Source: Candidatus Aenigmatarchaeota archaeon (GTDB lineage: Archaea > Aenigmatarchaeota > Aenigmatarchaeia > Aenigmatarchaeales > Aenigmatarchaeaceae). From it: a stretch of DNA of 64,000 bases. The DNA is taken from positions 28,083-92,082 of the forward strand of contig JBDRJK010000001.1 in NCBI GenBank assembly GCA_043814985.1, in the 5' to 3' direction. Below the pieces are notes generated by a model. It was not told where the DNA came from and did no database searches. It saw only the letters and a program-made list of their open reading frames with translations. How positions within the stretch are numbered: position 1 is the first letter of the stretch; each line of letters starts with the position of its first letter. The translations under genes and the position numbers were made by a program. Shown here piece after piece: positions 10,141 through 64,000 of the stretch.

Positions 10141-11148
10141 ATGAATTTTAAAAATATGTTAAGTTTTGGCTCGGGAAAGCCTAAAAAAGGCGGGCCCAAA
10201 AAGGAAGGGTTAAACATAGAGTACAAATATATACCCTTGATAGTAGCAGCTATCATAATCGCCATTGGATTATTTTTCTACGAAATTCCAGCAATAATGT
10301 ACAACCTCATTGTTCTTGGGGTCATAATAGGAGTGGCCCCACTAGTACTCATTTCTTATTTTGAATATTCTAGAATCAAGGCAATAGAGGACCAGCTGCC
10401 AATTTTCTTGCTTGATCTGGCCGAGTCACAAAAGGTCGGGTTGACCCTACACGAGTCACTGAAACAAGCAGCAAAAACTGACTACGGCAAGCTGACGCCT
10501 GAGATAAGAAAGGTCTACAACCAACTGTCATGGGGCTTGAGAGTACAAGACGTGTTTTTGAATTTTTCCAAAAGAATGAAGAAGTCAAAGCTAATAGGAA
10601 GGATTGTCAGGATAATAAATGAGACCTATATATCCGGAGGGGATATAGGAAGGACAATGGAATCGACCGCATCAGACATAACAGCCATAAAGGAGGCTGA
10701 GAAGGAAAGGAAGTCAGTAACCTCGGAGCACACCTTCATCATGTATGCAATATACTTCATATTCATCGGGATTGTCATTGGTCTTTCCCAGACACTTATA
10801 CCGCTGTTGAGCATGGGAGAGCAGGCCGGAGCAGCAGGTGGGGGAATGGGGGGAATATTCGAATTCAAAGACCCCTGCGTGGCATGTGAAGGCAGCGGCA
10901 ACATATACTGCATAAACTGCTCGATTTTTGGTGTTGTCTGCCAGATGTTCAGTCTAAAGGAAGGCGGAACATGCTATTACAATGCCTTATTCCTCGTGAT
11001 GGCAGTTGTGCAGGGCATCTTCTCAGGCCTGGTGGCCGGGCAGATAGGTGAGGGCTCTGTTTATGCTGGCGTCAAGCACAGCATTATAATGACAATCTCC
11101 GGCTTTGCAATACTTATAGCCCTAATGCTGTCAGGTTTCATGGGATAA
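10141..11148 (+). CDS. Second T2SS F-family platform protein (TadB/C-like)
   Basis: IEDQLPIFLLDLAESQKVG...YGKLTPEI...SWG motifs, plus a Cys-rich external loop. Confidence 0.9.
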   Translation: MNFKNMLSFGSGKPKKGGPKKEGLNIEYKYIPLIVAAIIIAIGLFFYEIPAIMYNLIVLGVIIGVAPLVLISYFEYSRIKAIEDQLPIFLLDLAESQKVGLTLHESLKQAAKTDYGKLTPEIRKVYNQLSWGLRVQDVFLNFSKRMKKSKLIGRIVRIINETYISGGDIGRTMESTASDITAIKEAEKERKSVTSEHTFIMYAIYFIFIGIVIGLSQTLIPLLSMGEQAGAAGGGMGGIFEFKDPCVACEGSGNIYCINCSIFGVVCQMFSLKEGGTCYYNALFLVMAVVQGIFSGLVAGQIGEGSVYAGVKHSIIMTISGFAILIALMLSGFMG

Positions 11149-11149
11149 T

Positions 11150-11596
11150 ATGCTCGGTCAAATAAGAATTGAATTCATTGCTGGCATCTTGATATTTTCA
11201 ATAATAATAACGTTTGTCGTAAACCAGACCAACATAACTTTCTCAAACCTGCTGACAGATTCAAAGGCTGACATCCTGAAGGCAAAGGCCTTAAATTCAA
11301 TAACAATCCTTGTTGAGGACACGGGACAACCATCAAACTGGAATCCGTCAAATGTTGAAAGAGTCGGACTTGCATACAAGCCGCATAGCCTTTCCCGCAA
11401 CAAGATAAACATGCTCAACACTAACTGTGATATCTTGGACAATTTCGTACTTAGGACCTACAGGCTAACGATATATAATTCCACTGATTTGATGTTGTTT
11501 TGCGGCAGCGAGAATTTAAACCCGGCTGCAGCATTTGAAGTGGAGTATGTTGAGATCGAGGGAGACTACGGCAATGTCTCATTAGAGATGTGGTAA
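11150..11596 (+). CDS. Minor pilin-like protein
   Basis: MLG|QIRIEFIAGILIF class III-like N-terminus and a GQPSNW motif. Confidence 0.75.
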   Translation: MLGQIRIEFIAGILIFSIIITFVVNQTNITFSNLLTDSKADILKAKALNSITILVEDTGQPSNWNPSNVERVGLAYKPHSLSRNKINMLNTNCDILDNFVLRTYRLTIYNSTDLMLFCGSENLNPAAAFEVEYVEIEGDYGNVSLEMW

Positions 11597-21183: not shown

Positions 21184-21804
21184 TCACATCCAGTCGTCTT
21201 CCCATTCCTCGAACTCTTCCTCATTGATGTTTATTCTGGATTTTCTCTTTGATATTATTCTTTCCCCGTACTTCTTTTTCAGATAGAAACCAATGATTAA
21301 ACCGAAACCTAAGCCAAACAGATGAGCTGCATTGGCCACATTAGAAGGAGCGAAGAAGCCTATCAAGTCTCCTGCAGCCCAGACGACAACAGCAGCAGCC
21401 ATTGGCATGGGAACATAACTAATATAGACCCTCATCCCAGGCCTTAACACAGCCAATGTTCCCAGAATACCCATTATGGCTCCTGAGGCCCCTAGTGAAG
21501 CCTCGTAGAATGGGATAGTGCCCAAACCTGCTATTATTCCTGCGAGAAAATAAAGGACAAGGAACTTCTTTCCTCCTATTATCCTTTCTAGAATGGAACC
21601 GAACAAAGCAAGAGCAAACATGTTATAGAACAGGTGCTCAATGCTCCCGTGGAGGAAAATGCTGGTTACTAAAATCCAGGGCCTTGAGAATACATCTGAA
21701 GATTCTAAAAGATACTGGTCTGTTATTGCCTCATTACTAATCTGCAGGACAAAAACAGCTACGCATATTATCACAAGTGTTATTGCAAACCAATTAAATC
21801 TCAT
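21184..21804 (-). CDS. Rhomboid-family intramembrane serine protease
   Basis: HLFYNM, GASG (catalytic Ser) and AHLFG (catalytic His). Confidence 0.95.
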   Translation of the reverse strand: MRFNWFAITLVIICVAVFVLQISNEAITDQYLLESSDVFSRPWILVTSIFLHGSIEHLFYNMFALALFGSILERIIGGKKFLVLYFLAGIIAGLGTIPFYEASLGASGAIMGILGTLAVLRPGMRVYISYVPMPMAAAVVVWAAGDLIGFFAPSNVANAAHLFGLGFGLIIGFYLKKKYGERIISKRKSRININEEEFEEWEDDWM

Positions 21805-50497: not shown

Positions 50498-51007
50498 ATG
50501 ATTTTGTCAAAGATGTTTTTGTTCCTGATTGCAATTACAATAGCAGTATCAGGCATGCAGATACTGGGATACCAGGTTCTGGAATTGATCATAGTAATGA
50601 TGGTGGTTGACTTCCTTACACTGGGAGCATTGTTCCATCTGGAAAAGGCCCCTTCCCTGATAAAGAACAACCCAATAAATGTGGAAGATGACATAGTTCC
50701 CAGGCTCAAGAAGATTGACAAGCTTGATGCCATAGAGGAGAACTCCAAAAACATACTCAGCCAATTATCTAATTCTGGCTTTGAGGACAAGCTGAAAAAG
50801 CAGAGCGACGACATAACCTATCTTTTAGACAAGATGGGGAGGAAGACACTAGAACTGGAAGAGAGAATAAACAAGTTCGGAAACGGCCTTTTAGACTCAT
50901 TAACAAACCTGAACAAAAGGGTAGATGGCCTAGAAAAGACAGACGAGAAAAACAACCAATTTTCCTCAAACGAGTTTGTTTATCTGAAAGCAGATGAAAA
51001 AGCTTAA
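50498..51007 (+). CDS. Hypothetical N-terminally membrane-anchored coiled-coil protein
   Basis: Two TM segments followed by about 100 aa of heptad-like helix. Confidence 0.75.
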   Translation: MILSKMFLFLIAITIAVSGMQILGYQVLELIIVMMVVDFLTLGALFHLEKAPSLIKNNPINVEDDIVPRLKKIDKLDAIEENSKNILSQLSNSGFEDKLKKQSDDITYLLDKMGRKTLELEERINKFGNGLLDSLTNLNKRVDGLEKTDEKNNQFSSNEFVYLKADEKA

Positions 51008-51032: not shown

Positions 51033-51311
51033 ATGGAAAGGTTTTTTTGGATAACAATGTTAACTGTAATAGCAGGATTGTTCCAGCTATTATTCTACAA
51101 AAGCATAGAATTGACCATAATACTCTTTTCTATTAATTTCATGGTTTTCGGGCTAGAACTGGCAAGAACAACATCCAAAAGGGGTGTTTTGCTAAAGCTT
51201 GAAAGCATAGAAAGGGACCTCAATGACACAGTAAGCAACCTGATTTCCCCCCAAATAGCCAAAATAGGGGGAAGTAAGAAGGAAATCATAGAGTGGCTGA
51301 ATAAATTCTAA
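51033..51311 (+). CDS. Hypothetical small membrane protein
   Basis: Two TM segments, a short coiled coil and a KEIIEWLNKF end. Confidence 0.7.
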   Translation: MERFFWITMLTVIAGLFQLLFYKSIELTIILFSINFMVFGLELARTTSKRGVLLKLESIERDLNDTVSNLISPQIAKIGGSKKEIIEWLNKF

Positions 51312-51375: not shown

Positions 51376-51764
51376 AGGCTATAGAACTTTTTTCGACTTA
51401 ATGTCTTTGATATTGTTAGACCATCATCTTCCATTTGCTTCAGGTATTCATTGCACCTTGTTCTCGACAGTTTTATGAGTTTACTCAATTGATAGGGAGT
51501 GATCTCCCTGTATTTCTGCAGTATCAGCCTGATTGCTTCCTTTGTCTTTACTGATACAGTGCGCCTTTGGAGTGTTATGCCGCTTGCCGAGATCACGTCA
51601 TTGACACTTCTCAAATTCGACTCTATCTTGTCGATTTTCTGGTTTAAACCCTTTAATCTCTCAATCTCAATTGCTATCTGAGCATAGCGCATGTCCAGCT
51701 GCTTCAACAAAGTTTCTATTGAATCCTTCTCTTCATCCTTGGACTTGAAAAAAGACATAAACAT
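51366..51764 (-). CDS. Coiled-coil plus C-terminal winged-helix DNA-binding protein
   Basis: N-terminal heptads; C-terminal ITPYQLSKLIKLSRTRCNEYLKQMEDDGL..KT..RKKFY wHTH. Confidence 0.8.
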   Translation of the reverse strand: MFMSFFKSKDEEKDSIETLLKQLDMRYAQIAIEIERLKGLNQKIDKIESNLRSVNDVISASGITLQRRTVSVKTKEAIRLILQKYREITPYQLSKLIKLSRTRCNEYLKQMEDDGLTISKTLSRKKFYSLRQ

Positions 51765-51887
51765 TACTATATTCTTTCATTTTCCTATATTTAAAAATTT
51801 TTCGACAGCACTGTTTTTCTCGTATTGTCGGGATTCTGCCTGTTTTTCCTTTTTAACAGGTTTAATATCATCGACATGAATCTTTTG

Positions 51888-51927
51888 TTATAAAATCTGG
51901 CCAGGTCTGTTGTACAATATTGTACAA
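51888..51927 (+). promoter_or_regulatory. TATA box (51888-51895) and perfect 18-bp palindromic operator TTGTACAATATTGTACAA (51910-51927)
   Basis: The palindrome consists of two TTGTACAA half-sites, lies 11 nt before the ATG at 51939 and spans the expected transcription start. Confidence 0.75.
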
Positions 51928-51938
51928 AAGGTTTTTCA

Positions 51939-52961
51939 ATGACAATAAAGGAACCTAGAAAAATTATAATCGAAGCTCTGATGAAGAATCCAGAAGGTTT
52001 GACACTTCTTTCACTAGCTGAGGTAACTGGATTGCACCGACACACAGCCACCAAATATGTCCATGAATTGATTGGAGCAGGGGTTGTCTACCAGAGAAGT
52101 GTCGGGGCTGCAAAGCTCTGTTATTTGAAGAAAAAAATAGAGACTGAAACTGACGAGAAAAGGGTTCTGGATATGCTTAGGAAAAAGAGGAAAGGAAGCG
52201 TCCAAATGAAGCTTTTGATTGCTGTGGTTGTCTTGTCGTTCCTGTTGAGCGAATCTGTGATCATAGCATATGAGAACAGCTCCTTCATCAACAATACCAA
52301 CTTCTCGAACACCAGCCCAGTCACATCAAGCCTCAATAATTCTGACTTGAATATCAATTTCAATATAACTGAAAATATCAACAGTACACAAAATAGTTCT
52401 GTCGAGCCATCGACAAATGAAACTGAGTTTAATAATAATGGAACTGTCGGAGGAACTAACGGAACATCCCTAAACACTACTAATGAAACAATAGAAGCCC
52501 CGATTATTGAAAATACAACCAATGTAACTGAGCCTGTAAATGCTACAGAGGACATTAATCAGACTATAGACCTTAACTTGACTTTTAATGAAACTTTTGA
52601 AGAAAATGAAACTGTTTTTGAAAACATAACAGAAATTATTGAAAGCATAACTTCTGAAATAGGAAATATTACATCTATAGAACCGATTCTTGATGTAAAG
52701 TTGCTGTATCCGCAGAAAATAATAAGGGGTGAAAGCCTGGATATAAGAGCTGACCTTGAAAACAGCGGTTATTTGGCTAAAAATGTTGTTCTCAACTGGC
52801 TGCTACCTGCTGGTTTTAACATGGTTTCTGGGAATATGAGTGAAAATTGCGGGGATTTGGATACTGGTGGTTCCTGCTATTCAGAGATTAGCGTTATGAC
52901 TAATCTGACAACAGGCATTGGCCTGAATGAAATAAGAGTTGTGGTTGATTATGAAGAGTAG
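51939..52961 (+). CDS. Membrane-tethered regulator: N-terminal wHTH, single TM, Asn/Thr-rich stalk, C-terminal Ig-like (CARDB/DUF11-like) domain
   Basis: GLTLLSLAEVTGLHRHTATKYVHELIGAGVVYQRSVGAAKLCY (wHTH), then LLIAVVVLSFLLSESVIIA (TM), many N-x-S/T sequons, and a C-terminal beta-rich domain with a Cys pair. Confidence 0.85.
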   Translation: MTIKEPRKIIIEALMKNPEGLTLLSLAEVTGLHRHTATKYVHELIGAGVVYQRSVGAAKLCYLKKKIETETDEKRVLDMLRKKRKGSVQMKLLIAVVVLSFLLSESVIIAYENSSFINNTNFSNTSPVTSSLNNSDLNINFNITENINSTQNSSVEPSTNETEFNNNGTVGGTNGTSLNTTNETIEAPIIENTTNVTEPVNATEDINQTIDLNLTFNETFEENETVFENITEIIESITSEIGNITSIEPILDVKLLYPQKIIRGESLDIRADLENSGYLAKNVVLNWLLPAGFNMVSGNMSENCGDLDTGGSCYSEISVMTNLTTGIGLNEIRVVVDYEE

Positions 52962-55900
52962 CACTAAGTCAGGACAGAGCCAATTATTGATTCCCCTACT
53001 CTTGATTATCTCATCGGCAATGGTATTTGCCACAAATGTCACTCTAAATTTGACCAAAAACACAACACCATCAGGAGCTTTTGTAGGCATTCCAAACAGT
53101 ACAAATGAAACTAATAATTCGCAAGAATTTGTATTCCCAATAGAGGTTTGGGCTGAAACCTACATTGGTATGAACATAGATGGAAATGTTGTTAAAGCTC
53201 ACTTGTTCTTGGACAACCAAACAAAAATTGAGAACCACCAAATCAATCTTTACCTGAATGGTGTTTTCTTTGGTTCTGATTTAACTGATGTTGAAGGCAT
53301 TGCTGAATTCACTGTTTCTGAATTTGGGGAATATAAGATATTTGCTGTTTTTGAAGGCAGAGACTTCTTGAACCCATCTGAAATCAACCTAACTGAGATA
53401 ATTCAAGAAAATGAGGTTATTTTCGAGATTCTTGGAACAGAGCAGGGTGATATTGAGATTGGGGAACCTGTTAAATGGGAGAAGAAATTCAGATTATTTA
53501 ACCCGAATGACAGGGATGCCTTAGCAGATTTCGAATTGGACTTTCCTGAAGATGCTTTTAGCGTTAATGTCGCTGAAAAGGACACGAAAAAGATGTTGAA
53601 TTTGATTAAGAAATCCATTAGGGAATGGCTCAAAGCCAATGAGAGTAGGGAATATATGCTGGAATACTTCACAGATTCACCAGTCGTAATCGAGGAACTG
53701 GTAAACAAGTACAAGAAAGTGATTAACATCAGCTCTCCGATACACTATGAGAATGTTCCTGTCTACACTGACATTGAAGAGACTTCCCAAGATTCCATAA
53801 GGATTTACTGGATTGTTGATGGTGAGAGAGTAGATATTACTAATAATCCTTCATTCAATGTTATTTTCATTGATTCCAATGGAAATGGCCTAATAGATAG
53901 AGTAGAGTGGGTTGTTCCACATCTTTCAGACCAGATATTCGAAATTTCAATTACTGTCTTGAATGTAGATACTCTTGTAAGAGATGGTGATAACTGGGTA
54001 GTCGCATTCAATACAACTGGAACAGCCAATTTGACCATTAATTCCACAAATGCTGGATGGACTGAGTTTCTGACAGACAACACAAGCACATTTGACGAAA
54101 TGTTACTGTTGGATATTAATTGTGGCAATGTTTCTTTGAAAGACTCATTACAATTGATTGATGAATTTGATAATGTTTACAATTACTCTGACTTAACTGC
54201 AAATGACACAATAGACATAAAGCATTTGTTTGTTGAGAATTATTCTTGCAATGATACTGGTCTCATAAGCAATAACATGTTAAAAGCTGGTTATGCTGCT
54301 CTACAATTCACCTTCGGAGACCAGATTGCTTATGCTTATGATGCTGCAGTAGTATGTAACTGGTCAACAGATACTGTTAACTGGGCAGATCAACAAGGTG
54401 GTGGTGGTTCTGCATGGGGAACTTCAAATACAACATGGAATCTAGGATATAATTGTAGCGAAGCAGGCGGTCCTTCAACTGGCTGCTATATCGCAAACAT
54501 AACAATAAACATGTATGGTGCTTCGGCGAGCCCTGCATCTGGTGGATTAGGTTTTGTAATATTTAGCAATGACTCAACACAATTCTTTCCTCTTGCGATT
54601 AATGTGGGTGGCGCATATACTTATGGTCCTGTAGATTCTTGTGGAGCTAATAACAACTATACTGGTGGAACAGGTTATCCTGGTAGTACACCAAACAGCA
54701 CTCCAAATACATGTAACATAAGTTTTACTGACTGGTTTAATGTAACATCATACACGGTTAATTGGTATATACCTGGTAAGGGTTCTGTGTCAATTCCAAC
54801 AATTAGTTACCAGTGGTGTTGGGAAGACGCGCTTCCAAAATTAGATAATCCAGCTGTTAATGGCACACAATCAGGATATAGTGCAGGTTGGGGAAGTATA
54901 TTCAACTTTTCAGTAGAAATATGGGAACCTCAAGGCAGTGAAAGTAATGTGAGTTTATGGTATACTCCAACTGCAGGAACAGGTTGGATGTTTGCAGGAT
55001 CAAGAAACGATACTTCGCCTCCAACTTCTTCTCCAGGCAACTTGACTAATTTTACTATAAACTATAGCTGTAGTGGAGGAACAATTACAGACAGTTTATC
55101 AAATGATTTGGGTGTTGTTGGGGCAGCAAAATACTATAAATTCAATGCTACTGACCCTTACTCCAATAAAAACGATACTTTTGATTCTTATGGAAACATA
55201 TATTTCACACCTACAAAAGATGATGTAAATGTTGTGAACGAGACTCCTACAGCTAATATTATTATAAACAGAAGTGACACAACTGATTTTGTTGTAGAGG
55301 TATATGACAGGGAAAAACAGAGTTACGGTAGTGGACAGTCTGGAAAAATATGGGTGTCTACCTATGAATATGATCAGAACACCAGTTATTTGGTAAGTAC
55401 TAATTCCACTGGGCATTTAGTACAAACATTTACGAATGCTATCTGGTGTGGGGACGAAAAATATTATCTTGGTGTTCATAAATGGAGTGGTGGAACAGAC
55501 AGTGATTCTTGTGTACAAAACAATGTAACTGAAAGTTCAAATTTCACCCTGTTGGGTAGTTTATACAACACATTAAACATTCCAGATGGAAGTTCAAATT
55601 TCACCCAAGCTCAAACAATAGATTTTACTGCAAGTGTGGCTGATGACTGTAGTGTTGGAAGAACAGCAACTTCCACAATTAACATCACTATGGTTAATAA
55701 CGACACTGAATATTTTTGTATTGCTTCAGCAGCTGGTGAATGTTCTATAAGCACAGACATTTCTTTCCCGACAGGATGGTACAATGTTACCATAGTTTCA
55801 AACAAATCTTACCATAATGATGGTTATTCTATTGATCAGGATGTTTTCTATCTATTACCTTACAGGAATGTTTTCAATGAGTCAGTAAATCCAGACTCTG

Positions 55901-58900
55901 CATATTGGAGCTATCCAAATTGGAACTTCTCTGTTTTAGCAACTTCAGGCGACAACGACCAAATGAATGTATCGCTTTATCTAAGGAAACAAGGTGAAAG
56001 TTATTCAGAATGCACTGGGTGTTTTAATCAGACCCCAACAATTTGTGTTAACTGTGAAAACCAGTCAGTATTCTGGTATCGTAATTTCACTGAACCAGAT
56101 TCAGGTAGCAATTGGTACTATCAGTTCAGGATGTATAACAACCTAACTGGTGAACTTGAAGACCAAACAACCGAGCATTCATTCTACGTGGACAGTATTC
56201 CAGATGAAAAAATATATTTGGAGAACGTAACTCAAAGCCCGTCTTCAGGGCAATGGGGTGGAACTCCATTCACTTTCAATATTACTGTTAACACGACAGG
56301 TATAAACAATGTAAGTGTATTCCTTTGGACTTCAGACAGTGCTACTGGTCCATGGTCATTGGTGGAATACCAGAACTACACTATCCCTCCTGGTGGCTGG
56401 CAAATAATAAATTACACGACATATTTCGACTGTAATGACATTGACACTGACAAGTATTTCTTCTTCAATGCAACCAACTACAACATGTCAACAAATACAA
56501 CAACACCCCAAAGTTTTGAAATAACAAGAGATAGAATAGAGCTTGATTACTACTGGGGGCATGACTCGACAGCTAACAGGTCAGGTGACCAGACTGATTT
56601 CTTGCTTTTCCGTGCAACCAATGTTAATGGCAGTGACATGGGAAGCTTCCCAATAAAATACTCTGTAACATCTGGTAATTCAACAGAAACATATTATACA
56701 GATAATAATTTTGTAACTAATACAAATAGTACTGGATTTGCTGAATTTTATTTCAATGCTACTTGTTTGAATGATTACATTGGAGCACCAAAATTCCAAG
56801 TCAGAGAACAGCAATGGAAGGCTCAGTTAAATGACTCTGAACTAGATTGTTACTATCAGAATGATAGTTCTGATATCTGGTATAGAAACATGAGTGTTAT
56901 GGGTAATATCCTGATAACACTATCAAACCCCGACGGAACTGAAAATGTGACTCAGGAGAATATAATGACTTTCCTTGGTTCCAGCGATGATGACTGTGGG
57001 GATTCTCTGAAATTGAACTATACCTTTGGATATGAGGAGATAAAGTACTATGCAAACAATACTCCGACAACTGGTTTTGACTGTGGTAATTCAACTCTGA
57101 TTGGTGCCAACGCTTATCGTTGCTACTGGCAGACTGACACTGATACGCCTGTCCAGGATTACAATGCATCAATGTTTGTGAACAGAATTGGTTACTATCC
57201 CAACCAGACATTGGATGATGCTTCCAGAGGATGGCTGTTCTATGTTGATGCACTAAGGCAATTCACAAACATAAGTGTTGTGCCTTCGTCAGCCCTATGG
57301 GATACAACAGACTGGAACTTCTCCGTCATTGCAACATCAGGAGATTACAACAATGAAACAATTGTGCTGCAATTGAAACAGGGTGCTGGTGCATGGCAGA
57401 ACTGTGAAGATGCTTTAGCACAATGCTACAACATGACTCCAACCAACTGTACACACTGCATAAATGAGACATACTTCTGGCATGCCAACTTCACTGCAGA
57501 CGATGCAGGAACGTGGTTCTACAAGTTCCAGATGAACAACAGCGATACCTATGTCATAGACGAGGAAACAACTGGCACTGATAGTTTTGACGTGCTGGCA
57601 AGCGATGTAAAGATATATATGGAGAATGTCACCAAGTATCCAACGACAGGAAGCTGGGGTGGTGGCAACTTCACTTTCAATGTTACTGTTAACACGAGTG
57701 GTATAAACAATGTTTCTGTATTCCTGTGGACTTCCAACAGCTCCACTGGGCCTTGGACATTAATTGAAGAGCAGAATTATACTATTCCACCAGGAGATTG
57801 GCAACAATTTAATTTTAGTAATGCTTATTATTGTGATGATATAGGGACCAATTATTTCTTCTTCAATGCAACGAACTATAACCTGTCGACAAACATGACA
57901 AGTCCCCAGAGCTTCACAGTGACAAAGGATACTGTGATATTAGAATACATAGAGGGTAACAACACAATTGCAAACAGGTCAGGAAGTCAAACTCAGAATC
58001 TATCTATAAGATTGAGTGATGGCAACGGTACATACCTAACTGATTTCAATATGACCTACTATGTGGAGACAAATAGTTTCGAATATGATTCTGGTAACAA
58101 TGTGACTTCTGACTCTTCTGGTTATGCCAATTATTCATTTGAACCAACATGTTCCGGTCCAAGATACGAAGTCGGGAATCAAAACTGGAAAACTGCTGCC
58201 TTGGAACAGCAGTGTTATCAGACCAATGACACTGACACTGCAGGGTTTGCCTTGAATCTGACAGTGATGGGCGACTTCAACATTAGCTTCAATTATCCTG
58301 AAACTGTTAACCAAAGTCTTGGCGATCAGGTAATATTCGAATCTGTCATAAAGGACAATTGTAATGTGGAATTAGGGGGAATAGAAGTAAGATACAATGC
58401 AACAAATGAAAACTTCAATGACGAATGTTCTTTGGTTACAAGTCCAGCCACTGGTCTTTACAGGTGTTTTGAGGGCGGAACAAACGGCTGGGATTCAACA
58501 GGAGCTAGGCAGGGTTGGTACAACGCAACTATTAACGCTACCAAAGATTTCTACTGGAACAATGTCACAACCAAAGCAGAGGAAGGCCTTGGTCATTTCT
58601 ATCTATACAGAAAACCAACATTGAGTGGAGATATTGTTGTTCCTTCAATTGGAGGATGGGCTTTGGACAGAAACTTCTCAGTCAATGTTACTGATGATCC
58701 TATTGACAATGTTACTGTTTTCCTATGGCATAGGAGCTCTGGAGGAACTGGAAATGTCTGGGAACAGATAAGCACATCTAAATTATGTTCTGATTGCGAC
58801 AATACCAATGTGAACTGGACTGATGTCAGTTACAACTGTTCATTCGCGTCTGCTGGAGGTTCTGTTGATTATAAGTTCAATGCCACTGATTTGGATTTGA

Positions 58901-61900
58901 ATAATACTGAAGCTTCAGGATCGTTCACTGTTAATTACGACAATGTCAGTGTTACCAACATAACACCTGTTGCTACTGCCACTATTAACAGAACAGACAC
59001 CACATCCTTTATCATCGGACTATATGATTTGGACAATAGCACTTCTCCAAATAACACACAAAGTAAGATATGGTTCACAACAACTGATGCAGCCACATGG
59101 GAAAGCGATGTTGCTGCTCCAACGATTTATTCAAACTCAACTGGTCATTTGAACAGGTCAATGACAGCAAGTGGTTGGACCAACCTTTTGGGTTGTGACA
59201 ATACATACAGCCTGGGTGTTCATTATTGGAAGGGTGGTTCTTACGGATCCAACTGTCCTCCAGGTTTGGTTGACAACATAACCTCCTCTATTATATTCAC
59301 CTTGATGGGAGAATTGAGCAATACCATTTACTGGCCTGTTGGAACCCAAAACTACACTGTCGGAAGCGGTATCCACTTGAATGGAACTGTTGTCAGGGAT
59401 AGCAGCTGTGGTGCAGCTACTGGCATAAGCGTTCTATATAACATTACAAACGGGACTCATGCGTACAGCTGTGACGGTGTTCACAGGGGCAACGGTGTTT
59501 ACAACTGCAGCTGGGATTCCAGCGACAAGGCAACAGGTTGGTACAATATCACAATGATATCTTACGGCAGCAATTACCATAATGGGACTGATGTTCAGAG
59601 TGATGCATTCTACTTGAGAAGTGGAATTCAATTAGAAGACATTTCAATGGAACCTGTTGGTGGTGGGAGCTATGGATATTCACCGTTTAACTTTACTGTA
59701 AATGTAACATCATCAGACAATGAGAATGTCACTGTTTATTTGTATTTGCAAAATGTTTCTGGCTGGTTCCTGGAGAATCAAAGTTCCTGTGTAAGTTGTG
59801 ATAACACCTACTTCAAGTTCTCCAAGGATTATGACTGTTCGAACATTGGTTCTTGGGATTACAAGTTCAATGCCACATCTGTCACAGGAGCAGTTAACAA
59901 CTCATTATCATCCAATAGCTTTACTGTAACAACAGATACAATAAGTATTAACTATGGTTCTGGCAACGAGTCTTACGTAAACAGAAGCAACACTAATCCT
60001 GAATACGAGATTCCACTTGTTGTCCAAGTTTGGGATACTGTCAAGAACGAGTTGACAACTGACATAACACTAAGCAACATAAACGCATATGTTACAACAA
60101 GCGGTTCAAGTTGGATGGAGTTGTCTGGTGGGCTGGGAACTGTTGTCAATAACACAACTCACTTTAATGTAACATTCGATCCTAACTGTTCATTCTCCGC
60201 AGGAAAAAGAAACTGGAAGTTCAACATATCTGGTGAGACTTGTTATGGTGATGCTGAATCCAGCAACTATAATGTAACTGTTGTTGGTAATCTGTCTGCT
60301 TATTACATGAGTCCTACTGGAGGAGCAATATATGATTTAGGAGATAATGTTCCATTGTTGGGTAATCTAACAGATGAGTGTAGCAATGACATCATCAATT
60401 CAAATGTCGGGTTCCAGCTGAACTCAAGTCCTTCCACAAGTTATTTCTGTACTTCACCTGGCAATGTCACTGGTAACTTCTATTCATGTGATTGGGATTC
60501 AAACAGTTATGATGTAGGCTATTATAATGTCACAATGATATCTTGGAATGATTCTTATGTCAATGGAACAGACTTTGAAACAGATGCAATCGAGATAAAG
60601 TCTATACCTGATCTGGATGTTGCTGATGTCAACCCAAGAGCGGAGGGGTGGGTCAAGACATTCAACTTTACTGTAAATGTAAGCGATAATGCTGGTGACA
60701 CTGTCAATGTTTATCTTTGGGAATCTACTGATGGAAGCGAACCATGGATTCAGATAGGTGGAATAAATAACTGCACAACTTGCGTTAACGAAACCATGAC
60801 ATGGAACAAGACATACATTTGTGATGATGTCGGGAACAACAGGGTATTCAAGTTCAATTCAACAGACACAGAAGGTAACAACTATAGCACATCTCTAGTG
60901 GCGGGTGATTATGTTGGTGGAAGCAACACTTTCAATATTGAGAAGAATAACATAGGCATTGAATACATAATTGGAAATGAAACCAATGCTAGTACTGTCG
61001 ACCCTGCATTGTTTATTGTGAGGGTGTATGACATTGACAATTCATCCAGTTACTATATGACACCTAGCATTGATATTTCATTCAATGTAACCAAACAAGG
61101 TTTGAGTAATACTTTCTTTACTGTTGGCAGCAATACAAGCAATGCAACAGGTCACATTATCTACTATTTCACACCAGACTCAAGCTTTGCTTCTGTAAAA
61201 CAAAACTGGACAGCATTTACTTCTGCAGGTGAGGGATGCTACAAACTAAACCAAAGCGATTATTACAATGTAACAACCCAAACACACGTTCCAAAAATAG
61301 AGAACGAGACAGTTGATCCTCAAGTAGGAGGATGGGGAGACGCCAGACAGTTTAATGTGTCGATATACGATGCCAATGACACTGCCGTTGTAAGATTGTG
61401 GAAGTCAACAAGCACTGGAGGACCTTGGACATTTGTAGCTTATCAGAATTATACTGATGTTGGAAATTGGGAAAATGTATCCTTCTTGATTAATTTCACT
61501 TGCACTGATTACAGAACAGAGCCGTGGTACTTCAAGCTAAATGTTAGTGATGATTTCAACAACACGAACTCGACTGATACACCAGAACCCGAGAACAATT
61601 ACACTGTCAACAAGGATGCTGTAATATTTGAAGAATTTTATGGCAATAACTCAACTGCGAATCGTATTGGAAGCCAAACCGATTTATTGTCTTTAAGATT
61701 AAGAGATGGAAACGGAACCTATTTGACTGATTTCAATGCCACTTTTTATGTGACTACTGACGGAGTCAGCTGGCCTGGTAGTGGTGTTGTCAATCAGAGC
61801 AATAGCAGTGGTTATGTTCACTATAACTTTAATCCCATTTGTTCACCAAAGAACCAAGTAGGTGACCAGATGTGGAAGGTTGAAGTCGGTGACTCGTGCT

Positions 61901-64000
61901 ATCAGACCAACAGCACCAACACATCAGATTTATTCTTGAACCTGACAGTTATGGGCAACATAAACCTTACTTTCACTAGGCCTGATGGAACTACAAACTA
62001 TACACAGGAAGATCCAATACTGTTCCAGGGTTATACTTACGATGATTGTGGAGGTGCTATTGCGCCAACAGTAAAGTTCTATGCAAACAATTCAACTGAT
62101 TATGGCTTTGATTGCGGTAGTGTACAAAAAATAGGTGAAAACGTATTTGAGTGTACCTGGCAAACCCAGATAACAACACCAAGGGGTTGGTACAACACAA
62201 CAATGGATGCGAACATAACAGGCCATTATAACAACTTCAGCATAAACTCTGGCACTTCTGGTTTGTTCTACTTGAACCCAATATATAAAATAGAAAACAT
62301 TTTAGGAACACCAACTACAGATGGTTGGGGATACACCAACTGGAACTTTTCAGCAATAATATCTTCTGGCGATCCTGACACAAGCTATCCTTTGGAGATA
62401 TTCATGAACAAAGGTTCCCCTGACTTCACAACAGCTTGTTCAGGTTCAACATGTTTTAACCAGACAACTGTAGAGTGCATTTATCCCGAATGTGTCAACA
62501 AAACAGTTTTCTGGTACAGGAACTTCTCTTACAATGATCAGGGAACATGGTTCTTCAAGTTGAGCTTAGCAGCTGAAGAAACTTCTGGTAATGATATTGT
62601 GACAGTGGTAAAAGATGATATACTCATAAACCATTCGTTTGGTAATGGTGAGAGTGTAAACAGAAGCGGTGATCAATCAAAGCTTTTGGTTGTTTTTGTA
62701 AATGATACGGACAGAAACCTGTCAGCAGCAAATCCTTTTGTAAATGTTTATTTCAATGTAACCAACAACACAGCCAGCAATTATTTAATTTACGGCGCTA
62801 ACTCTACAAACACAACTGGTTATTCCAATGCAACATTTAACCCGAACTGTGATTATTCCAATGGAACTCAGAATTGGTTTTCCTATGTTTCAGGGGATTC
62901 AAACTACAATGATGCGAATTCCAGTATATTCAATATAACAATCTACGGAGACCTAAACCCATCTGAAATTAGAACTTACAACACAACGCATGAAACAAAT
63001 TATTTCTTCCATGGTCAAAATGTAAACATTACTGGAATTGTAGAGGATGACTGTGGTAACAGAATCTCAAATGAAACAGGAATAAACGTAACATTCGAGG
63101 TTTTCAAAAATAATACTTATCCAGCATCGGCAGATACGTACTGTTTTGATGTAACCTATCTTGGAAACGGAATATACAGCTGCCTATGGGACACCAAAAC
63201 ATATGAGAATGATACTTACAAGATAAGAATGGATGCAAGCAATGTAAGCTTCCATAACAATGGGACATATTCGAAGCCCGGAGCATTTGGTTTGAATGTA
63301 CCTCCAAACACGCCTCCAGTTGTAAGCGATGGGAGCGTAACACCAGACCCGGGTGGCTGGGGTTCAACATTCAACTTCTCAGTGAATGTAACAGATGGGG
63401 ATGAATTCCAAAACGTTACTGTTCATTTCTGGGAATCTCCTGACGGAAGCGAGCCATGGACCTTAATAGAAGATCAAACATGCACAGATTGTGTTAACAC
63501 TACTGTAAAAACTGTTTACTTCAGCAAAAACGATTACAGCTGCCAGCAAATAGGAATTAGATATTACAAGTTCAATGCAACTGATAATTCAAGTGAGGCA
63601 AATGCAGGTTCTGATTCTGATGATGGACCTTACAGTTTTAACCTGACAAGGGATAATGTTGAATTCATTAATCCTGTTGGTAGTGCTGGTACTGTAAACA
63701 GAAGTGGTAGTCAGGACATATTCCTTGCAGTCCGGATTAACGACACCACTAAAGGTGTTTTAGTTGAATCTAATGTAACCGCTGGAAGGTTCTGGATAAC
63801 TTATGATGAACTAAACTGGAACAGTGGAAGCAGTAACAGAACCTCTAACTCATCTAGTTATGTAAACTACACATTCGACCCAACATGTACACCTACAAGG
63901 TACAATGTAAGCAATGCACAACAATGGAAAGTAGGAGTTTTGAATGATTCTTGTTATATTGATGCTAACAGTTCTAATTACACCTTGACAATAAAGGGTG
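52951..64000 (+). CDS. Giant secreted/surface glycoprotein, >3,680 aa, 3'-partial
   Basis: ATG at 52951 overlaps the regulator's 3' end by 11 nt; MKSSTKSGQSQLLIPLLLIISSAMVFA signal. The frame was open at every position spot-checked through 64000 (..NYTLTIKG), consistent with its absence from a stop-terminated ORF track. Confidence 0.92.
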   Translation, partial: MKSSTKSGQSQLLIPLLLIISSAMVFATNVTLNLTKNTTPSGAFVGIPNSTNETNNSQEFVFPIEVWAETYIGMNIDGNVVKAHLFLDNQTKIENHQINLYLNGVFFGSDLTDVEGIAEFTVSEFGEYKIFAVFEGRDFLNPSEINLTEIIQENEVIFEILGTEQGDIEIGEPVKWEKKFRLFNPNDRDALADFELDFPEDAFSVNVAEKDTKKMLNLIKKSIREWLKANESREYMLEYFTDSPVVIEELVNKYKKVINISSPIHYENVPVYTDIEETSQDSIRIYWIVDGERVDITNNPSFNVIFIDSNGNGLIDRVEWVVPHLSDQIFEISITVLNVDTLVRDGDNWVVAFNTTGTANLTINSTNAGWTEFLTDNTSTFDEMLLLDINCGNVSLKDSLQLIDEFDNVYNYSDLTANDTIDIKHLFVENYSCNDTGLISNNMLKAGYAALQFTFGDQIAYAYDAAVVCNWSTDTVNWADQQGGGGSAWGTSNTTWNLGYNCSEAGGPSTGCYIANITINMYGASASPASGGLGFVIFSNDSTQFFPLAINVGGAYTYGPVDSCGANNNYTGGTGYPGSTPNSTPNTCNISFTDWFNVTSYTVNWYIPGKGSVSIPTISYQWCWEDALPKLDNPAVNGTQSGYSAGWGSIFNFSVEIWEPQGSESNVSLWYTPTAGTGWMFAGSRNDTSPPTSSPGNLTNFTINYSCSGGTITDSLSNDLGVVGAAKYYKFNATDPYSNKNDTFDSYGNIYFTPTKDDVNVVNETPTANIIINRSDTTDFVVEVYDREKQSYGSGQSGKIWVSTYEYDQNTSYLVSTNSTGHLVQTFTNAIWCGDEKYYLGVHKWSGGTDSDSCVQNNVTESSNFTLLGSLYNTLNIPDGSSNFTQAQTIDFTASVADDCSVGRTATSTINITMVNNDTEYFCIASAAGECSISTDISFPTGWYNVTIVSNKSYHNDGYSIDQDVFYLLPYRNVFNESVNPDSAYWSYPNWNFSVLATSGDNDQMNVSLYLRKQGESYSECTGCFNQTPTICVNCENQSVFWYRNFTEPDSGSNWYYQFRMYNNLTGELEDQTTEHSFYVDSIPDEKIYLENVTQSPSSGQWGGTPFTFNITVNTTGINNVSVFLWTSDSATGPWSLVEYQNYTIPPGGWQIINYTTYFDCNDIDTDKYFFFNATNYNMSTNTTTPQSFEITRDRIELDYYWGHDSTANRSGDQTDFLLFRATNVNGSDMGSFPIKYSVTSGNSTETYYTDNNFVTNTNSTGFAEFYFNATCLNDYIGAPKFQVREQQWKAQLNDSELDCYYQNDSSDIWYRNMSVMGNILITLSNPDGTENVTQENIMTFLGSSDDDCGDSLKLNYTFGYEEIKYYANNTPTTGFDCGNSTLIGANAYRCYWQTDTDTPVQDYNASMFVNRIGYYPNQTLDDASRGWLFYVDALRQFTNISVVPSSALWDTTDWNFSVIATSGDYNNETIVLQLKQGAGAWQNCEDALAQCYNMTPTNCTHCINETYFWHANFTADDAGTWFYKFQMNNSDTYVIDEETTGTDSFDVLASDVKIYMENVTKYPTTGSWGGGNFTFNVTVNTSGINNVSVFLWTSNSSTGPWTLIEEQNYTIPPGDWQQFNFSNAYYCDDIGTNYFFFNATNYNLSTNMTSPQSFTVTKDTVILEYIEGNNTIANRSGSQTQNLSIRLSDGNGTYLTDFNMTYYVETNSFEYDSGNNVTSDSSGYANYSFEPTCSGPRYEVGNQNWKTAALEQQCYQTNDTDTAGFALNLTVMGDFNISFNYPETVNQSLGDQVIFESVIKDNCNVELGGIEVRYNATNENFNDECSLVTSPATGLYRCFEGGTNGWDSTGARQGWYNATINATKDFYWNNVTTKAEEGLGHFYLYRKPTLSGDIVVPSIGGWALDRNFSVNVTDDPIDNVTVFLWHRSSGGTGNVWEQISTSKLCSDCDNTNVNWTDVSYNCSFASAGGSVDYKFNATDLDLNNTEASGSFTVNYDNVSVTNITPVATATINRTDTTSFIIGLYDLDNSTSPNNTQSKIWFTTTDAATWESDVAAPTIYSNSTGHLNRSMTASGWTNLLGCDNTYSLGVHYWKGGSYGSNCPPGLVDNITSSIIFTLMGELSNTIYWPVGTQNYTVGSGIHLNGTVVRDSSCGAATGISVLYNITNGTHAYSCDGVHRGNGVYNCSWDSSDKATGWYNITMISYGSNYHNGTDVQSDAFYLRSGIQLEDISMEPVGGGSYGYSPFNFTVNVTSSDNENVTVYLYLQNVSGWFLENQSSCVSCDNTYFKFSKDYDCSNIGSWDYKFNATSVTGAVNNSLSSNSFTVTTDTISINYGSGNESYVNRSNTNPEYEIPLVVQVWDTVKNELTTDITLSNINAYVTTSGSSWMELSGGLGTVVNNTTHFNVTFDPNCSFSAGKRNWKFNISGETCYGDAESSNYNVTVVGNLSAYYMSPTGGAIYDLGDNVPLLGNLTDECSNDIINSNVGFQLNSSPSTSYFCTSPGNVTGNFYSCDWDSNSYDVGYYNVTMISWNDSYVNGTDFETDAIEIKSIPDLDVADVNPRAEGWVKTFNFTVNVSDNAGDTVNVYLWESTDGSEPWIQIGGINNCTTCVNETMTWNKTYICDDVGNNRVFKFNSTDTEGNNYSTSLVAGDYVGGSNTFNIEKNNIGIEYIIGNETNASTVDPALFIVRVYDIDNSSSYYMTPSIDISFNVTKQGLSNTFFTVGSNTSNATGHIIYYFTPDSSFASVKQNWTAFTSAGEGCYKLNQSDYYNVTTQTHVPKIENETVDPQVGGWGDARQFNVSIYDANDTAVVRLWKSTSTGGPWTFVAYQNYTDVGNWENVSFLINFTCTDYRTEPWYFKLNVSDDFNNTNSTDTPEPENNYTVNKDAVIFEEFYGNNSTANRIGSQTDLLSLRLRDGNGTYLTDFNATFYVTTDGVSWPGSGVVNQSNSSGYVHYNFNPICSPKNQVGDQMWKVEVGDSCYQTNSTNTSDLFLNLTVMGNINLTFTRPDGTTNYTQEDPILFQGYTYDDCGGAIAPTVKFYANNSTDYGFDCGSVQKIGENVFECTWQTQITTPRGWYNTTMDANITGHYNNFSINSGTSGLFYLNPIYKIENILGTPTTDGWGYTNWNFSAIISSGDPDTSYPLEIFMNKGSPDFTTACSGSTCFNQTTVECIYPECVNKTVFWYRNFSYNDQGTWFFKLSLAAEETSGNDIVTVVKDDILINHSFGNGESVNRSGDQSKLLVVFVNDTDRNLSAANPFVNVYFNVTNNTASNYLIYGANSTNTTGYSNATFNPNCDYSNGTQNWFSYVSGDSNYNDANSSIFNITIYGDLNPSEIRTYNTTHETNYFFHGQNVNITGIVEDDCGNRISNETGINVTFEVFKNNTYPASADTYCFDVTYLGNGIYSCLWDTKTYENDTYKIRMDASNVSFHNNGTYSKPGAFGLNVPPNTPPVVSDGSVTPDPGGWGSTFNFSVNVTDGDEFQNVTVHFWESPDGSEPWTLIEDQTCTDCVNTTVKTVYFSKNDYSCQQIGIRYYKFNATDNSSEANAGSDSDDGPYSFNLTRDNVEFINPVGSAGTVNRSGSQDIFLAVRINDTTKGVLVESNVTAGRFWITYDELNWNSGSSNRTSNSSSYVNYTFDPTCTPTRYNVSNAQQWKVGVLNDSCYIDANSSNYTLTIKG
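54880..64000 (+). repeat. Degenerate tandem protein-domain repeats within the giant ORF
   Basis: About 11 copies of a (G)W(G)-x3-4-(F/W)NF(S/T)V module start (near 54886, 55905, 56251, 57295, 57652, 58651, 59660, 60645, 61327, 62322, 63352), plus recurring NR(S/I)G(D/S)Q and Cys-pair motifs. Confidence 0.85.

Follow-up and report, generated by a model that had tools for sequence, protein, structure and literature searches.

Gene order at the locus and distribution of the cassette

Aenigmarchaeota are tiny symbiotic archaea, and the DPANN archaea (Diapherotrites, Parvarchaeota, Aenigmarchaeota, Nanoarchaeota, Nanohaloarchaeota) depend on contact with a host cell, for which giant surface proteins are prime suspects. 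To our knowledge, neither the control of the 15-43 kb genes for such proteins nor the way in which the products are kept on the cell has been described. The locus described here lies in a 64,000-nt stretch of a Candidatus Aenigmatarchaeota archaeon (contig JBDRJK010000001.1), called the window throughout; positions refer to it unless another locus is named. Three genes are central to the analysis. The P0001 gene (51939-52961, forward strand; 340 aa) encodes a winged helix-turn-helix (wHTH), a transmembrane (TM) helix, a stalk and an immunoglobulin-like (Ig-like) head in a single polypeptide. It is followed by the open reading frame (ORF) of a giant surface protein (52951-64000, forward strand), which runs off the end of the window after 3,683 aa. 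Divergent from both is the P0085 gene (51366-51764, reverse strand), coding for a 132-aa protein with an N-terminal coiled coil and a C-terminal wHTH (Pfam HTH_24). Divergent P0085, P0001 and the giant protein form a three-gene cassette that is conserved in Aenigmarchaeota.

A word-indexed search returned 83 homologues of P0001, about 70 of them spanning the whole protein, and those that are named come nearly all from Aenigmarchaeota metagenome-assembled genomes (MAGs). An exhaustive profile-free search gave 456 cluster representatives at E ≤ 1e-3, of which 39 reach E ≤ 1e-30. Locus context was examined for 30 loci from genomes or assemblies, 16 obtained by a pattern scan of metagenomes and three reached starting from P0085. 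The fused gene with a giant ORF downstream was found in more than 40 loci, Aenigmarchaeota nearly throughout. Wherever the downstream DNA sufficed, a very long ORF lies directly 3' of the P0001 gene, which bears out the operon link proposed in a preliminary description of the locus. Called lengths of the giant ORF are at least 5,824, 14,201, 12,873 and 12,232 aa; elsewhere it exceeds 3,300 aa and reaches the end of the fetched DNA. A single small gene stands between the wHTH-TM gene and the giant ORF in L015 and L017, the one in L015 (11004-11507 of that locus) being an inserted Schlafen AlbA_2-domain gene (82 bits). The fusion, the giant-ORF link and the promoter dyad described below each recur in dozens of independent loci, which is beyond chance. 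Full-text literature searches gave no paper describing the P0001 family or the cassette.

Domain architecture of P0001

The combination of wHTH, TM helix, sequon-rich stalk and Ig-like head in one chain, first read from the translated ORF, was upheld by Pfam, by 63 aligned orthologues and by an AlphaFold model made from these orthologues. The wHTH (residues 6-63, 51954-52127, forward strand) is modelled with helices at residues 6-16, 23-30 and 34-46 and a wing at 50-63 (predicted local distance difference test, pLDDT, >95). It matches Pfam HTH_IclR over residues 10-53 with 24.2 bits (cut-off 22), while MarR_2, HTH_24 and other profiles stay below their cut-offs; Foldseek places it with MarR-family structures (E about 1e-3). 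No IclR C-terminal part and no MarR N- or C-terminal dimerisation/effector part was found in P0001, where the wing is followed by a linker and the TM helix. NCBIfam gave no match for P0001, and a PDB sequence search nothing meaningful.

Residues 70-118 form an unbroken helix that contains the sole hydrophobic segment of the protein, the TM segment at about residues 91-111 (52209-52271, forward strand). Since KKRKG stands directly N-terminal of the TM helix, in line with the positive-inside rule, and N-x-S/T sequons occur solely C-terminal of it, the protein is assigned the N-in/C-out (type-II) topology that had been suggested for it. Nearly all sequons (22 of 24) lie within residues 113-243 and thus define the stalk (residues 113-245, 52275-52673, forward strand), which the model shows as disordered from 122 to 224, followed by a short helix. 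The head (residues 251-339, 52689-52955, forward strand) is a seven-stranded beta-sandwich (pLDDT >90). The P0001 head itself has no Pfam match, and its DUF11/NEW3/CARDB assignment comes through the aligned orthologue P0074, which scores 34.9 bits with DUF11 (cut-off 24.6), 30.8 with NEW3 (cut-off 24.4) and, in its wHTH, 22.7 with HTH_IclR (cut-off 22). Precomputed matches to Ig-like families exist for the head domain of six other homologues. Foldseek matches of the head are generic Ig-like domains, including translocon-associated protein (TRAP) subunits, complement MG domains and CBM2; a relationship to TRAP subunits was set aside as an ordinary Ig-fold match (TM-score 0.43).

Alignments with 26 and with 63 family members show the wHTH as the best-conserved part, in which G-L-H-R-H-T-x-x-K-Y and V-G-x-A-K-L-C-Y-L hardly vary. 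Both the length and the sequence of the stalk differ freely among members, and the head keeps two Cys, R263, N282 and G328. The head is predicted to bear a disulfide and the stalk to be heavily glycosylatable. An internal start at the Met of MKLLIAVV, which would have left the wHTH outside the protein, was rejected: most orthologues have L or I instead of this Met, and the wHTH upstream of it is the best-conserved region. The fusion of the wHTH to the membrane part is thus real. The outer half of the TM helix (residues 97-111, 52227-52271) carries a conserved polar FLLSE[ST].

Translational coupling to the giant protein

The P0001 stop codon (52959-52961) overlaps the start of the giant gene by 11 nt, confirming the overlap reported at first sight. 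At this junction (52941-52961, forward strand) the Shine-Dalgarno (SD)-like GTGGTTGA at 52941-52948 and the giant ATG at 52951 both lie inside the last P0001 codons, which read VVVDYEE and stop. The 11-nt overlap with a GGTGA-like SD was found in at least 15 loci; overlap and embedded SD together explain the conserved C-terminal VVVxYE[EK] of the P0001 family.

The N-terminus of the giant protein is conserved (MKSSxKSG-QSQLLIPL…), with G8, Q9 and S10 invariant in 21 sequences, and is modelled as a helix at residues 13-28 followed by an Ig-like domain. Beyond the first ~150 residues the protein diverges fast and is rich in Cys and sequons (73 and 239, respectively). Pfam gave no match in the 3,683 aa within the window, and none is recorded for the 5,801-aa database copy, which is probably cut by the end of its contig because no terminal feature is present at its end. 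More distant homologues contain beta-helix, laminin-G-like and Big_9 domains. "Adhesin" is a reasonable guess for the function of the giant protein. P0001 and the giant protein share no sequence similarity.

The conserved N-terminal module (52951-53400) begins with the G-QSQLL motif and a hydrophobic helix, a start that resembles an archaeal class III prepilin-type signal, and continues with the one Ig-like domain. Signals of this class consist of a short charged leader with G or A at its end and a cleavage site, after which come a hydrophobic helix and a beta-sandwich. Compared with pilins, the N-terminal domain gave only a weak match (a Pyrobaculum pilus at rank 33, E 0.02). It is pure speculation, by analogy with Glu5 of type IV pilins, that once the giant protein is processed its new N-terminus might pair with the Glu of FLLSE[ST] in the P0001 TM helix. 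In L032 and L033 the N-terminal module is a separate gene of 295 aa (8764-9651 in L032), preceding a 12,232-aa ORF.

The operon promoter and the TGTACA dyad

Between the P0085 and P0001 genes lies a 174-bp control region. Its central element is the TGTACA-N4-TGTACA dyad TTGTACAATATTGTACAA (51910-51927), a candidate operator marked out by its conservation across loci: an 18-bp perfect palindrome that is also a direct repeat of TTGTACAA. It ends 11 nt before the P0001 ATG and lies 15-22 nt from the upstream TATA-like TTATAAAA (block B; 51888-51895, forward strand), whose centre is 27 nt upstream of the dyad centre. Judged by its sequence and by its position in orthologues, block B is the probable TATA box of the operon; orthologue promoters have the TATA-like blocks TTTATAGTA, CTATAATAG and TTATTTCTA in the same place. 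With block B as TATA box, the predicted transcription start would fall on the dyad. A first TATA-like element, TTTAATAT (block A; 51861-51868, forward strand), is found further upstream, just 5' of a CGACA box. Downstream, the dyad is followed by the SD-like AAGGT (51928-51932, forward strand), 6 nt before the ATG, which we take to match the archaeal anti-SD; orthologues have AGGT, GGGT or GTGAT at this position. The near clade keeps a fixed layout: block A, TCGACA, 5-11 nt, block B, a palindromic element, 2-9 nt, dyad, SD and ATG.

A search for TGTACA dyads upstream of related genes, as had been suggested, showed the dyad to be conserved between the TATA-like box and the SD or ATG. With one mismatch or fewer allowed, the window and 22 loci each have a single copy, always 68-109 nt 5' of the HPEGLT codon. 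In the 64-kb window it is single even with three mismatches allowed, and lone TGTACA hexamers are at chance frequency. The 497 kb searched gave just one further match, in L027, where the gene for a soluble paralogue with the HRHT-type recognition helix begins. The hexamers are fixed even where the proteins share only ~30% identity with P0001, and the N4 between them varies (ATAT, ATAC, ACAA, TTAA, CTAC, CTGG, CCGG, CTAG). A metagenome scan with the exact 18-mer gave at least 120 stretches, of which 16 among the matches listed carry the family gene, in each case with the dyad directly adjoining it; the other stretches are unrelated organisms or repeats, and the scan is uninformative about any regulon. 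Among metagenome contigs that lack the family gene, L064, L070, L140, L148, L150 and L152 have the 18-mer twice, 29 nt apart, and others have it in tandem arrays, which are unrelated elements.

Alternatively, the palindrome could act in the mRNA, where its arms would form a 7-bp hairpin beside the SD within the 5' untranslated region (UTR) and control translation or mRNA stability. The dyad does abut the SD, its arms are kept while the N4 "loop" varies, TGTACA/TGTATA variants would still pair through G-U, and a neighbouring palindrome changes its sequence yet stays palindromic. On the other hand, the predicted fold of -7.6 kcal/mol has no extra stability over shuffled sequence (z = 0.01), the nearer TATA-like box would leave half of the dyad untranscribed, and the arms show no compensatory changes over ~40 loci, which points to sequence-specific recognition. 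We give RNA control only the slightest chance. Fixed hexamers spaced one helical turn apart, a free N4 and the lack of compensatory changes argue that the dyad is an operator recognised by a protein.

The neighbouring palindrome, CTGGCCAG (51897-51904), lies between the TATA-like box and the dyad. It differs by lineage and remains palindromic (CTGGCCAG, TTGGCCAA, CCGGCCGG, GTCTAGAC), with arms of 3-8 nt and a length of up to 16 nt. Because GGCC-type and CTAG-type sites align in different registers, it was judged by arm length against shuffled intervals: over 22 promoters the mean arm was 5, compared with 2.8 in the shuffles.

The divergent regulator P0085 and the CGACA boxes

P0085 matches Pfam HTH_24 with 26.6 bits (cut-off 21.9), and its recognition helix, LSRTRCxEY, is invariant in the family alignment. 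In every one of the 25 loci with upstream DNA, the wHTH-TM gene is preceded by a divergent gene for a P0085 homologue; with the three P0085-seeded loci the count is 28 of 28. The P0085 family has 111 matches, on the same contigs as the P0001 family; three members taken from contigs outside the P0001 matches each face a wHTH-TM gene with the same promoter layout. A TATA-like TATATTTAAAAA (51786-51797), a conserved block in the intergenic alignment A3, lies ~25-30 nt from the P0085 start codon and is the probable promoter of a near-leaderless P0085 transcript.

Three CGACA boxes, all given here on the forward strand, share the control region. Box 1, TCGACA (51802-51807), is an invariant block in A3 and abuts the P0085 TATA-like element. 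Box 2 (51826-51831) is inverted and reads TGTCGG, or TGTCGA in most orthologous loci, TGTCG being invariant in A3. Box 3, TCGACA (51871-51876), is invariant in 22 of 22 aligned promoters and stands just 3' of TTTAATAT and 11 nt 5' of the operon TATA-like box TTATAAAA. TCGACA is clustered here, with 6 of its 24 copies in the window falling within 51464-52415. More distant loci have boxes 1 and 2 drawn together into a tight inverted repeat (TGTCGA-N0-4-TCGACA) that adjoins the P0085 gene. A further CGACA inverted repeat, TGTCGAGCCATCGACA (52400-52415), lies in the stalk-coding region of P0001 and keeps its codon position in relatives: it is at the same codons in L005 and L006, and in L001 with one mismatch, while the stalk around it diverges fast. 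It is possibly an internal operator for the factor that binds the CGACA boxes, acting by looping or as a roadblock.

Assignment of the two motifs

The preliminary description called the dyad the operator of P0001 itself. That the gene has a conserved dyad was borne out; ownership was not established, as the divergent P0085 and the CGACA boxes share the region. With two dedicated DNA-binding proteins and two motif families in one control region, ownership of an operator is not to be presumed, and because both motif families are invariant, co-occurrence cannot separate the possible assignments.

Three loci discriminate between them. L030 retains P0085 and the CGACA boxes but not the dyad, and the recognition helix of its wHTH-TM protein reads NRNT instead of HRHT. 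L031 has the helix SRHA and no dyad, with a TCGACG box present. The soluble HRHT paralogue of L027 has 77 aa; TGTACAGCTTGGTACA covers the start of its gene, and a P0085 gene is absent within 10 kb. Together with the tight CGACA repeat at the P0085 promoter, these loci connect the dyad with the P0001 wHTH and the CGACA boxes with P0085. We propose with moderate confidence that the dyad is read by the P0001 wHTH and the CGACA boxes by P0085, so that the dyad is likely P0001's own operator. GTTAAC was considered as an alternative operator of the soluble paralogues with changed helices and dropped, the hexamer being common throughout those loci.

The assignment could also be swapped, with P0085 binding the dyad as the real regulator of the operon and the P0001 wHTH binding the CGACA boxes, DNA non-specifically, or P0085. 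In its favour, P0085 is present in 28 of 28 loci with its invariant recognition helix, the invariance of both motif families keeps co-occurrence from discriminating, and a coiled-coil dimer suits a symmetric dyad. This is difficult to reconcile with L030, where the dyad is lost as the P0001-type helix changes while P0085 and the CGACA boxes are kept, with the dyad-like site of L027, which has a soluble HRHT paralogue and P0085 not nearby, and with the distant clades, whose tight CGACA repeat sits at P0085's own promoter. We consider the swapped arrangement unlikely.

Fused, split and paralogous variants

In L016, L023, L030, L154, L155 and L156 the wHTH-TM part and a surface protein form one chain; the surface proteins range from 545 aa to more than 2,500 aa and include ones of 2,300-2,500 aa or more. 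The opposite arrangement is found in L031 (7795-12725), a second, paralogous cassette in the MAG of L001: a separate 69-aa wHTH (helix MSRHAVTKY) is ATGA-coupled to a 197-aa signal/TM-stalk-Ig protein, and the third gene codes for a protein with DUF7402 that exceeds 1,380 aa. That the same parts occur fused, split or side by side argues that DNA-binding head, membrane stalk and giant protein are physical or functional partners.

Some variants and neighbouring genes carry additional features. An intein/Hint-like segment is present in the external part of the fused protein of L023 (residues 266-392, ~10770-11150 of that locus) and also in L016 and L154, with a Pfam Intein_splicing score of 28.1 bits, under the cut-off of 35.8. 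In L002 a TnpB-like gene (Cas12f1-like_TNB) adjoins the partner regulator gene. Two small genes for membrane-plus-coiled-coil proteins of 169 and 92 aa (50498-51007 and 51033-51311) adjoin the P0085 gene in the window; the near clade retains both genes, with L001, L006 and L008-L011 having them and L002 having them displaced. They may be members of the cassette or just local synteny after ftsZ-secE-spt5-L11.

Proposed mechanism and alternatives

We see an even chance that P0001 is a membrane-tethered autoregulator and partner of the giant protein, a proposal built from sequence, models and conservation. A P0001 dimer, still held in the membrane, would bind the dyad through its invariant HRHT..KY recognition helix. 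Occupancy of the dyad would block recruitment of RNA polymerase and so give negative autoregulation. Blocking of polymerase recruitment is the usual mode of archaeal repressors whose sites lie just downstream of the TATA box, and it is the most likely one here because the dyad covers the predicted transcription start. As P0001 and the giant protein are made in a fixed ratio, the circuit could gauge the amount of giant protein that has arrived at the envelope. On the outside, the P0001 stalk and Ig head would putatively touch the giant protein at its conserved N-terminal module and serve as its anchor or partner. Such contact is favoured by the genomes in which the wHTH-TM part is fused directly to a large surface protein, and the first ~150 residues of the giant, its only conserved part, are the natural partner for the conserved head and TM helix of P0001. 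The state of assembly or engagement of the giant protein might then alter P0001 dimerisation or DNA binding across the membrane, while P0085 would act at the CGACA boxes of its own promoter and of the operon promoter.

Several points weigh against this proposal. L016, L019 and L020 keep the HRHT helix yet have a degenerate dyad, and the discriminating loci are few, just three. P0085 is always present with an equally invariant recognition helix and could bind the dyad. The sign of the regulation, repression or activation, is inferred from the position of the site alone. The choice of TATA box is ambiguous as well: the dyad lies over the expected start, as first described, with block B as TATA box, but block A, ~25 nt upstream, would put it inside a 5' UTR of ~50 nt. 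The sequence of the window occurs only in DNA runs (groundwater and biofilm metagenomes), with no RNA runs for the window or L002.

A different role for the same geometry would be that of a tether. The nascent wHTH would bind its own gene in cis and the TM helix would insert, pinning locus and mRNA at the membrane or translocon (transertion), so that synthesis and export of a protein of 5,000-14,000 aa both take place at the translocon, with regulation playing a minor part or none. In favour of this, the wHTH is at the N-terminus and the candidate operator at the 5' end of the message that encodes it. P0001 is obligatorily coupled in translation to a giant exported protein, the direct fusions in several genomes give the same geometry, and apart from the L027 match no dyad occurs elsewhere in the 497 kb. 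The top Foldseek matches of the ectodomain are the Ig domains of TRAP subunits, a weak and generic similarity that amounts to the ordinary Ig-fold match noted above. Against a tether, a site over the transcription start would be expected to hinder rather than aid transcription, and the split paralogue L031 has a soluble wHTH that would be unable to tether. We regard this role as improbable.

The preliminary description offered as plausible a sensing of contact, for example with a host surface, followed by conformational change or intramembrane proteolysis. In the proteolytic version, a rhomboid or similar protease would free the wHTH and derepress the giant protein. Membrane-tethered factors freed by proteolysis are well known from bacteria and eukaryotes, a rhomboid protease gene is indeed encoded in the window (21184-21804, reverse strand; Pfam 111.5 bits), and the conserved polar Ser-Glu of FLLSE[ST] in the outer half of the TM helix could destabilise the helix. 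The linkage implied by that gene did not hold, since it is 30 kb away, no rhomboid is found in the neighbourhoods of the other loci, and rhomboids are common housekeeping genes. Moreover, freeing a repressor from the membrane does not in itself derepress its target, and cleavage of the fused variants would also unanchor the giant protein. We consider this route, a pure inference, very improbable.

Returning to P0001 as tethered autoregulator and partner of the giant protein, the cassette might go further and link the chromosome to a surface fibre of megadalton size, with a wHTH bound in cis and a TM helix and head holding the giant or, in some genomes, fused to it, either pinning the locus by transertion or sensing the pull or engagement of the fibre. 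We think this doubtful. If true, pull on or engagement of the fibre at a host cell would be passed to promoter occupancy, a contact- or mechano-sensing pathway of one protein in an archaeal symbiont. The module is testable, comprising two small DNA-binding domains, two short invariant motifs, the 174-bp control region and a series of fused, split and paralogous versions.

Comparison with known systems

P0001 had been called ToxR/CadC-like, which stands as an analogy of topology and not as homology. In common with ToxR, CadC and TcpP, it combines in one chain an N-terminal cytoplasmic winged helix, one TM helix and a C-terminal domain outside the cell, and DNA is presumably bound while the protein is in the membrane. 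PF00486 (Trans_reg_C, OmpR/PhoB-type) is absent from the Pfam scan of P0001 at E ≤ 10, which lists HTH_IclR, MarR_2, HTH_24 and others, and no ToxR/CadC sensor domain was found in it. In contrast to ToxR and CadC, its wHTH is MarR/IclR-like, and its external part is a glycosylatable stalk with an Ig-like sandwich of DUF11/NEW3/CARDB type; furthermore it is archaeal, obligatorily coupled and sometimes fused to a giant protein, and paired with the soluble wHTH protein P0085.

On the envelope side, SlaB of the archaeal SlaA/SlaB S-layer is a small single-pass glycosylated stalk with beta-sandwich domains that anchors a larger protein encoded next to it. P0001 resembles it as a small glycosylatable single-pass stalk encoded beside a much larger surface protein. 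SlaB differs in having a C-terminal TM helix and no DNA-binding domain, and in the P0001 cassette the small protein precedes the large one.

The giant protein itself recalls the SPEARE proteins of Nanohaloarchaeota and other DPANN, which are multi-thousand-residue, mostly extracellular, membrane-anchored and thought to act on the host (PMC6642349). Their hallmark is a cytoplasmic type III restriction-enzyme region near a C-terminal TM helix, accompanied by laminin-G, protease and toxin-like domains (PMC6642349). In some relatives the giant protein is likewise joined to a cytoplasmic nucleic-acid-related domain. None of the hallmark domains was detected in the 3,683 aa available, which stop short of the C-terminus. 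SPEARE genes are not known to be preceded by a gene for a membrane-tethered regulator.

Among characterised archaeal systems, ArnR/ArnR1 of Sulfolobus acidocaldarius comes closest, a membrane-bound HTH regulator of archaellum and pili with defined promoter boxes (PMC6396743). Its existence qualifies the initial statement that no characterised archaeal system with this layout is known; the particular layout of P0001 is not known from any described system. In ArnR the HTH is followed by a HAMP-like and a sensor domain and, at the C-terminus, by two TM helices, and the protein activates the archaellum operon (PMC6396743). It senses on the cytoplasmic or membrane side, whereas P0001 has one TM helix right after the wHTH and a large external domain; in addition, the candidate site of P0001 overlaps the predicted transcription start, and P0001 is in the same operon as its presumed target. 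If the proposed role is true, the P0001 family would be the second among the very few membrane-bound transcription factors of archaea and the first with a large external domain. Set beside these systems, the cassette, with its recurring evolutionary link of a DNA-binding head to a giant envelope protein, looks like an undescribed way of tying the expression of a surface giant to the envelope.

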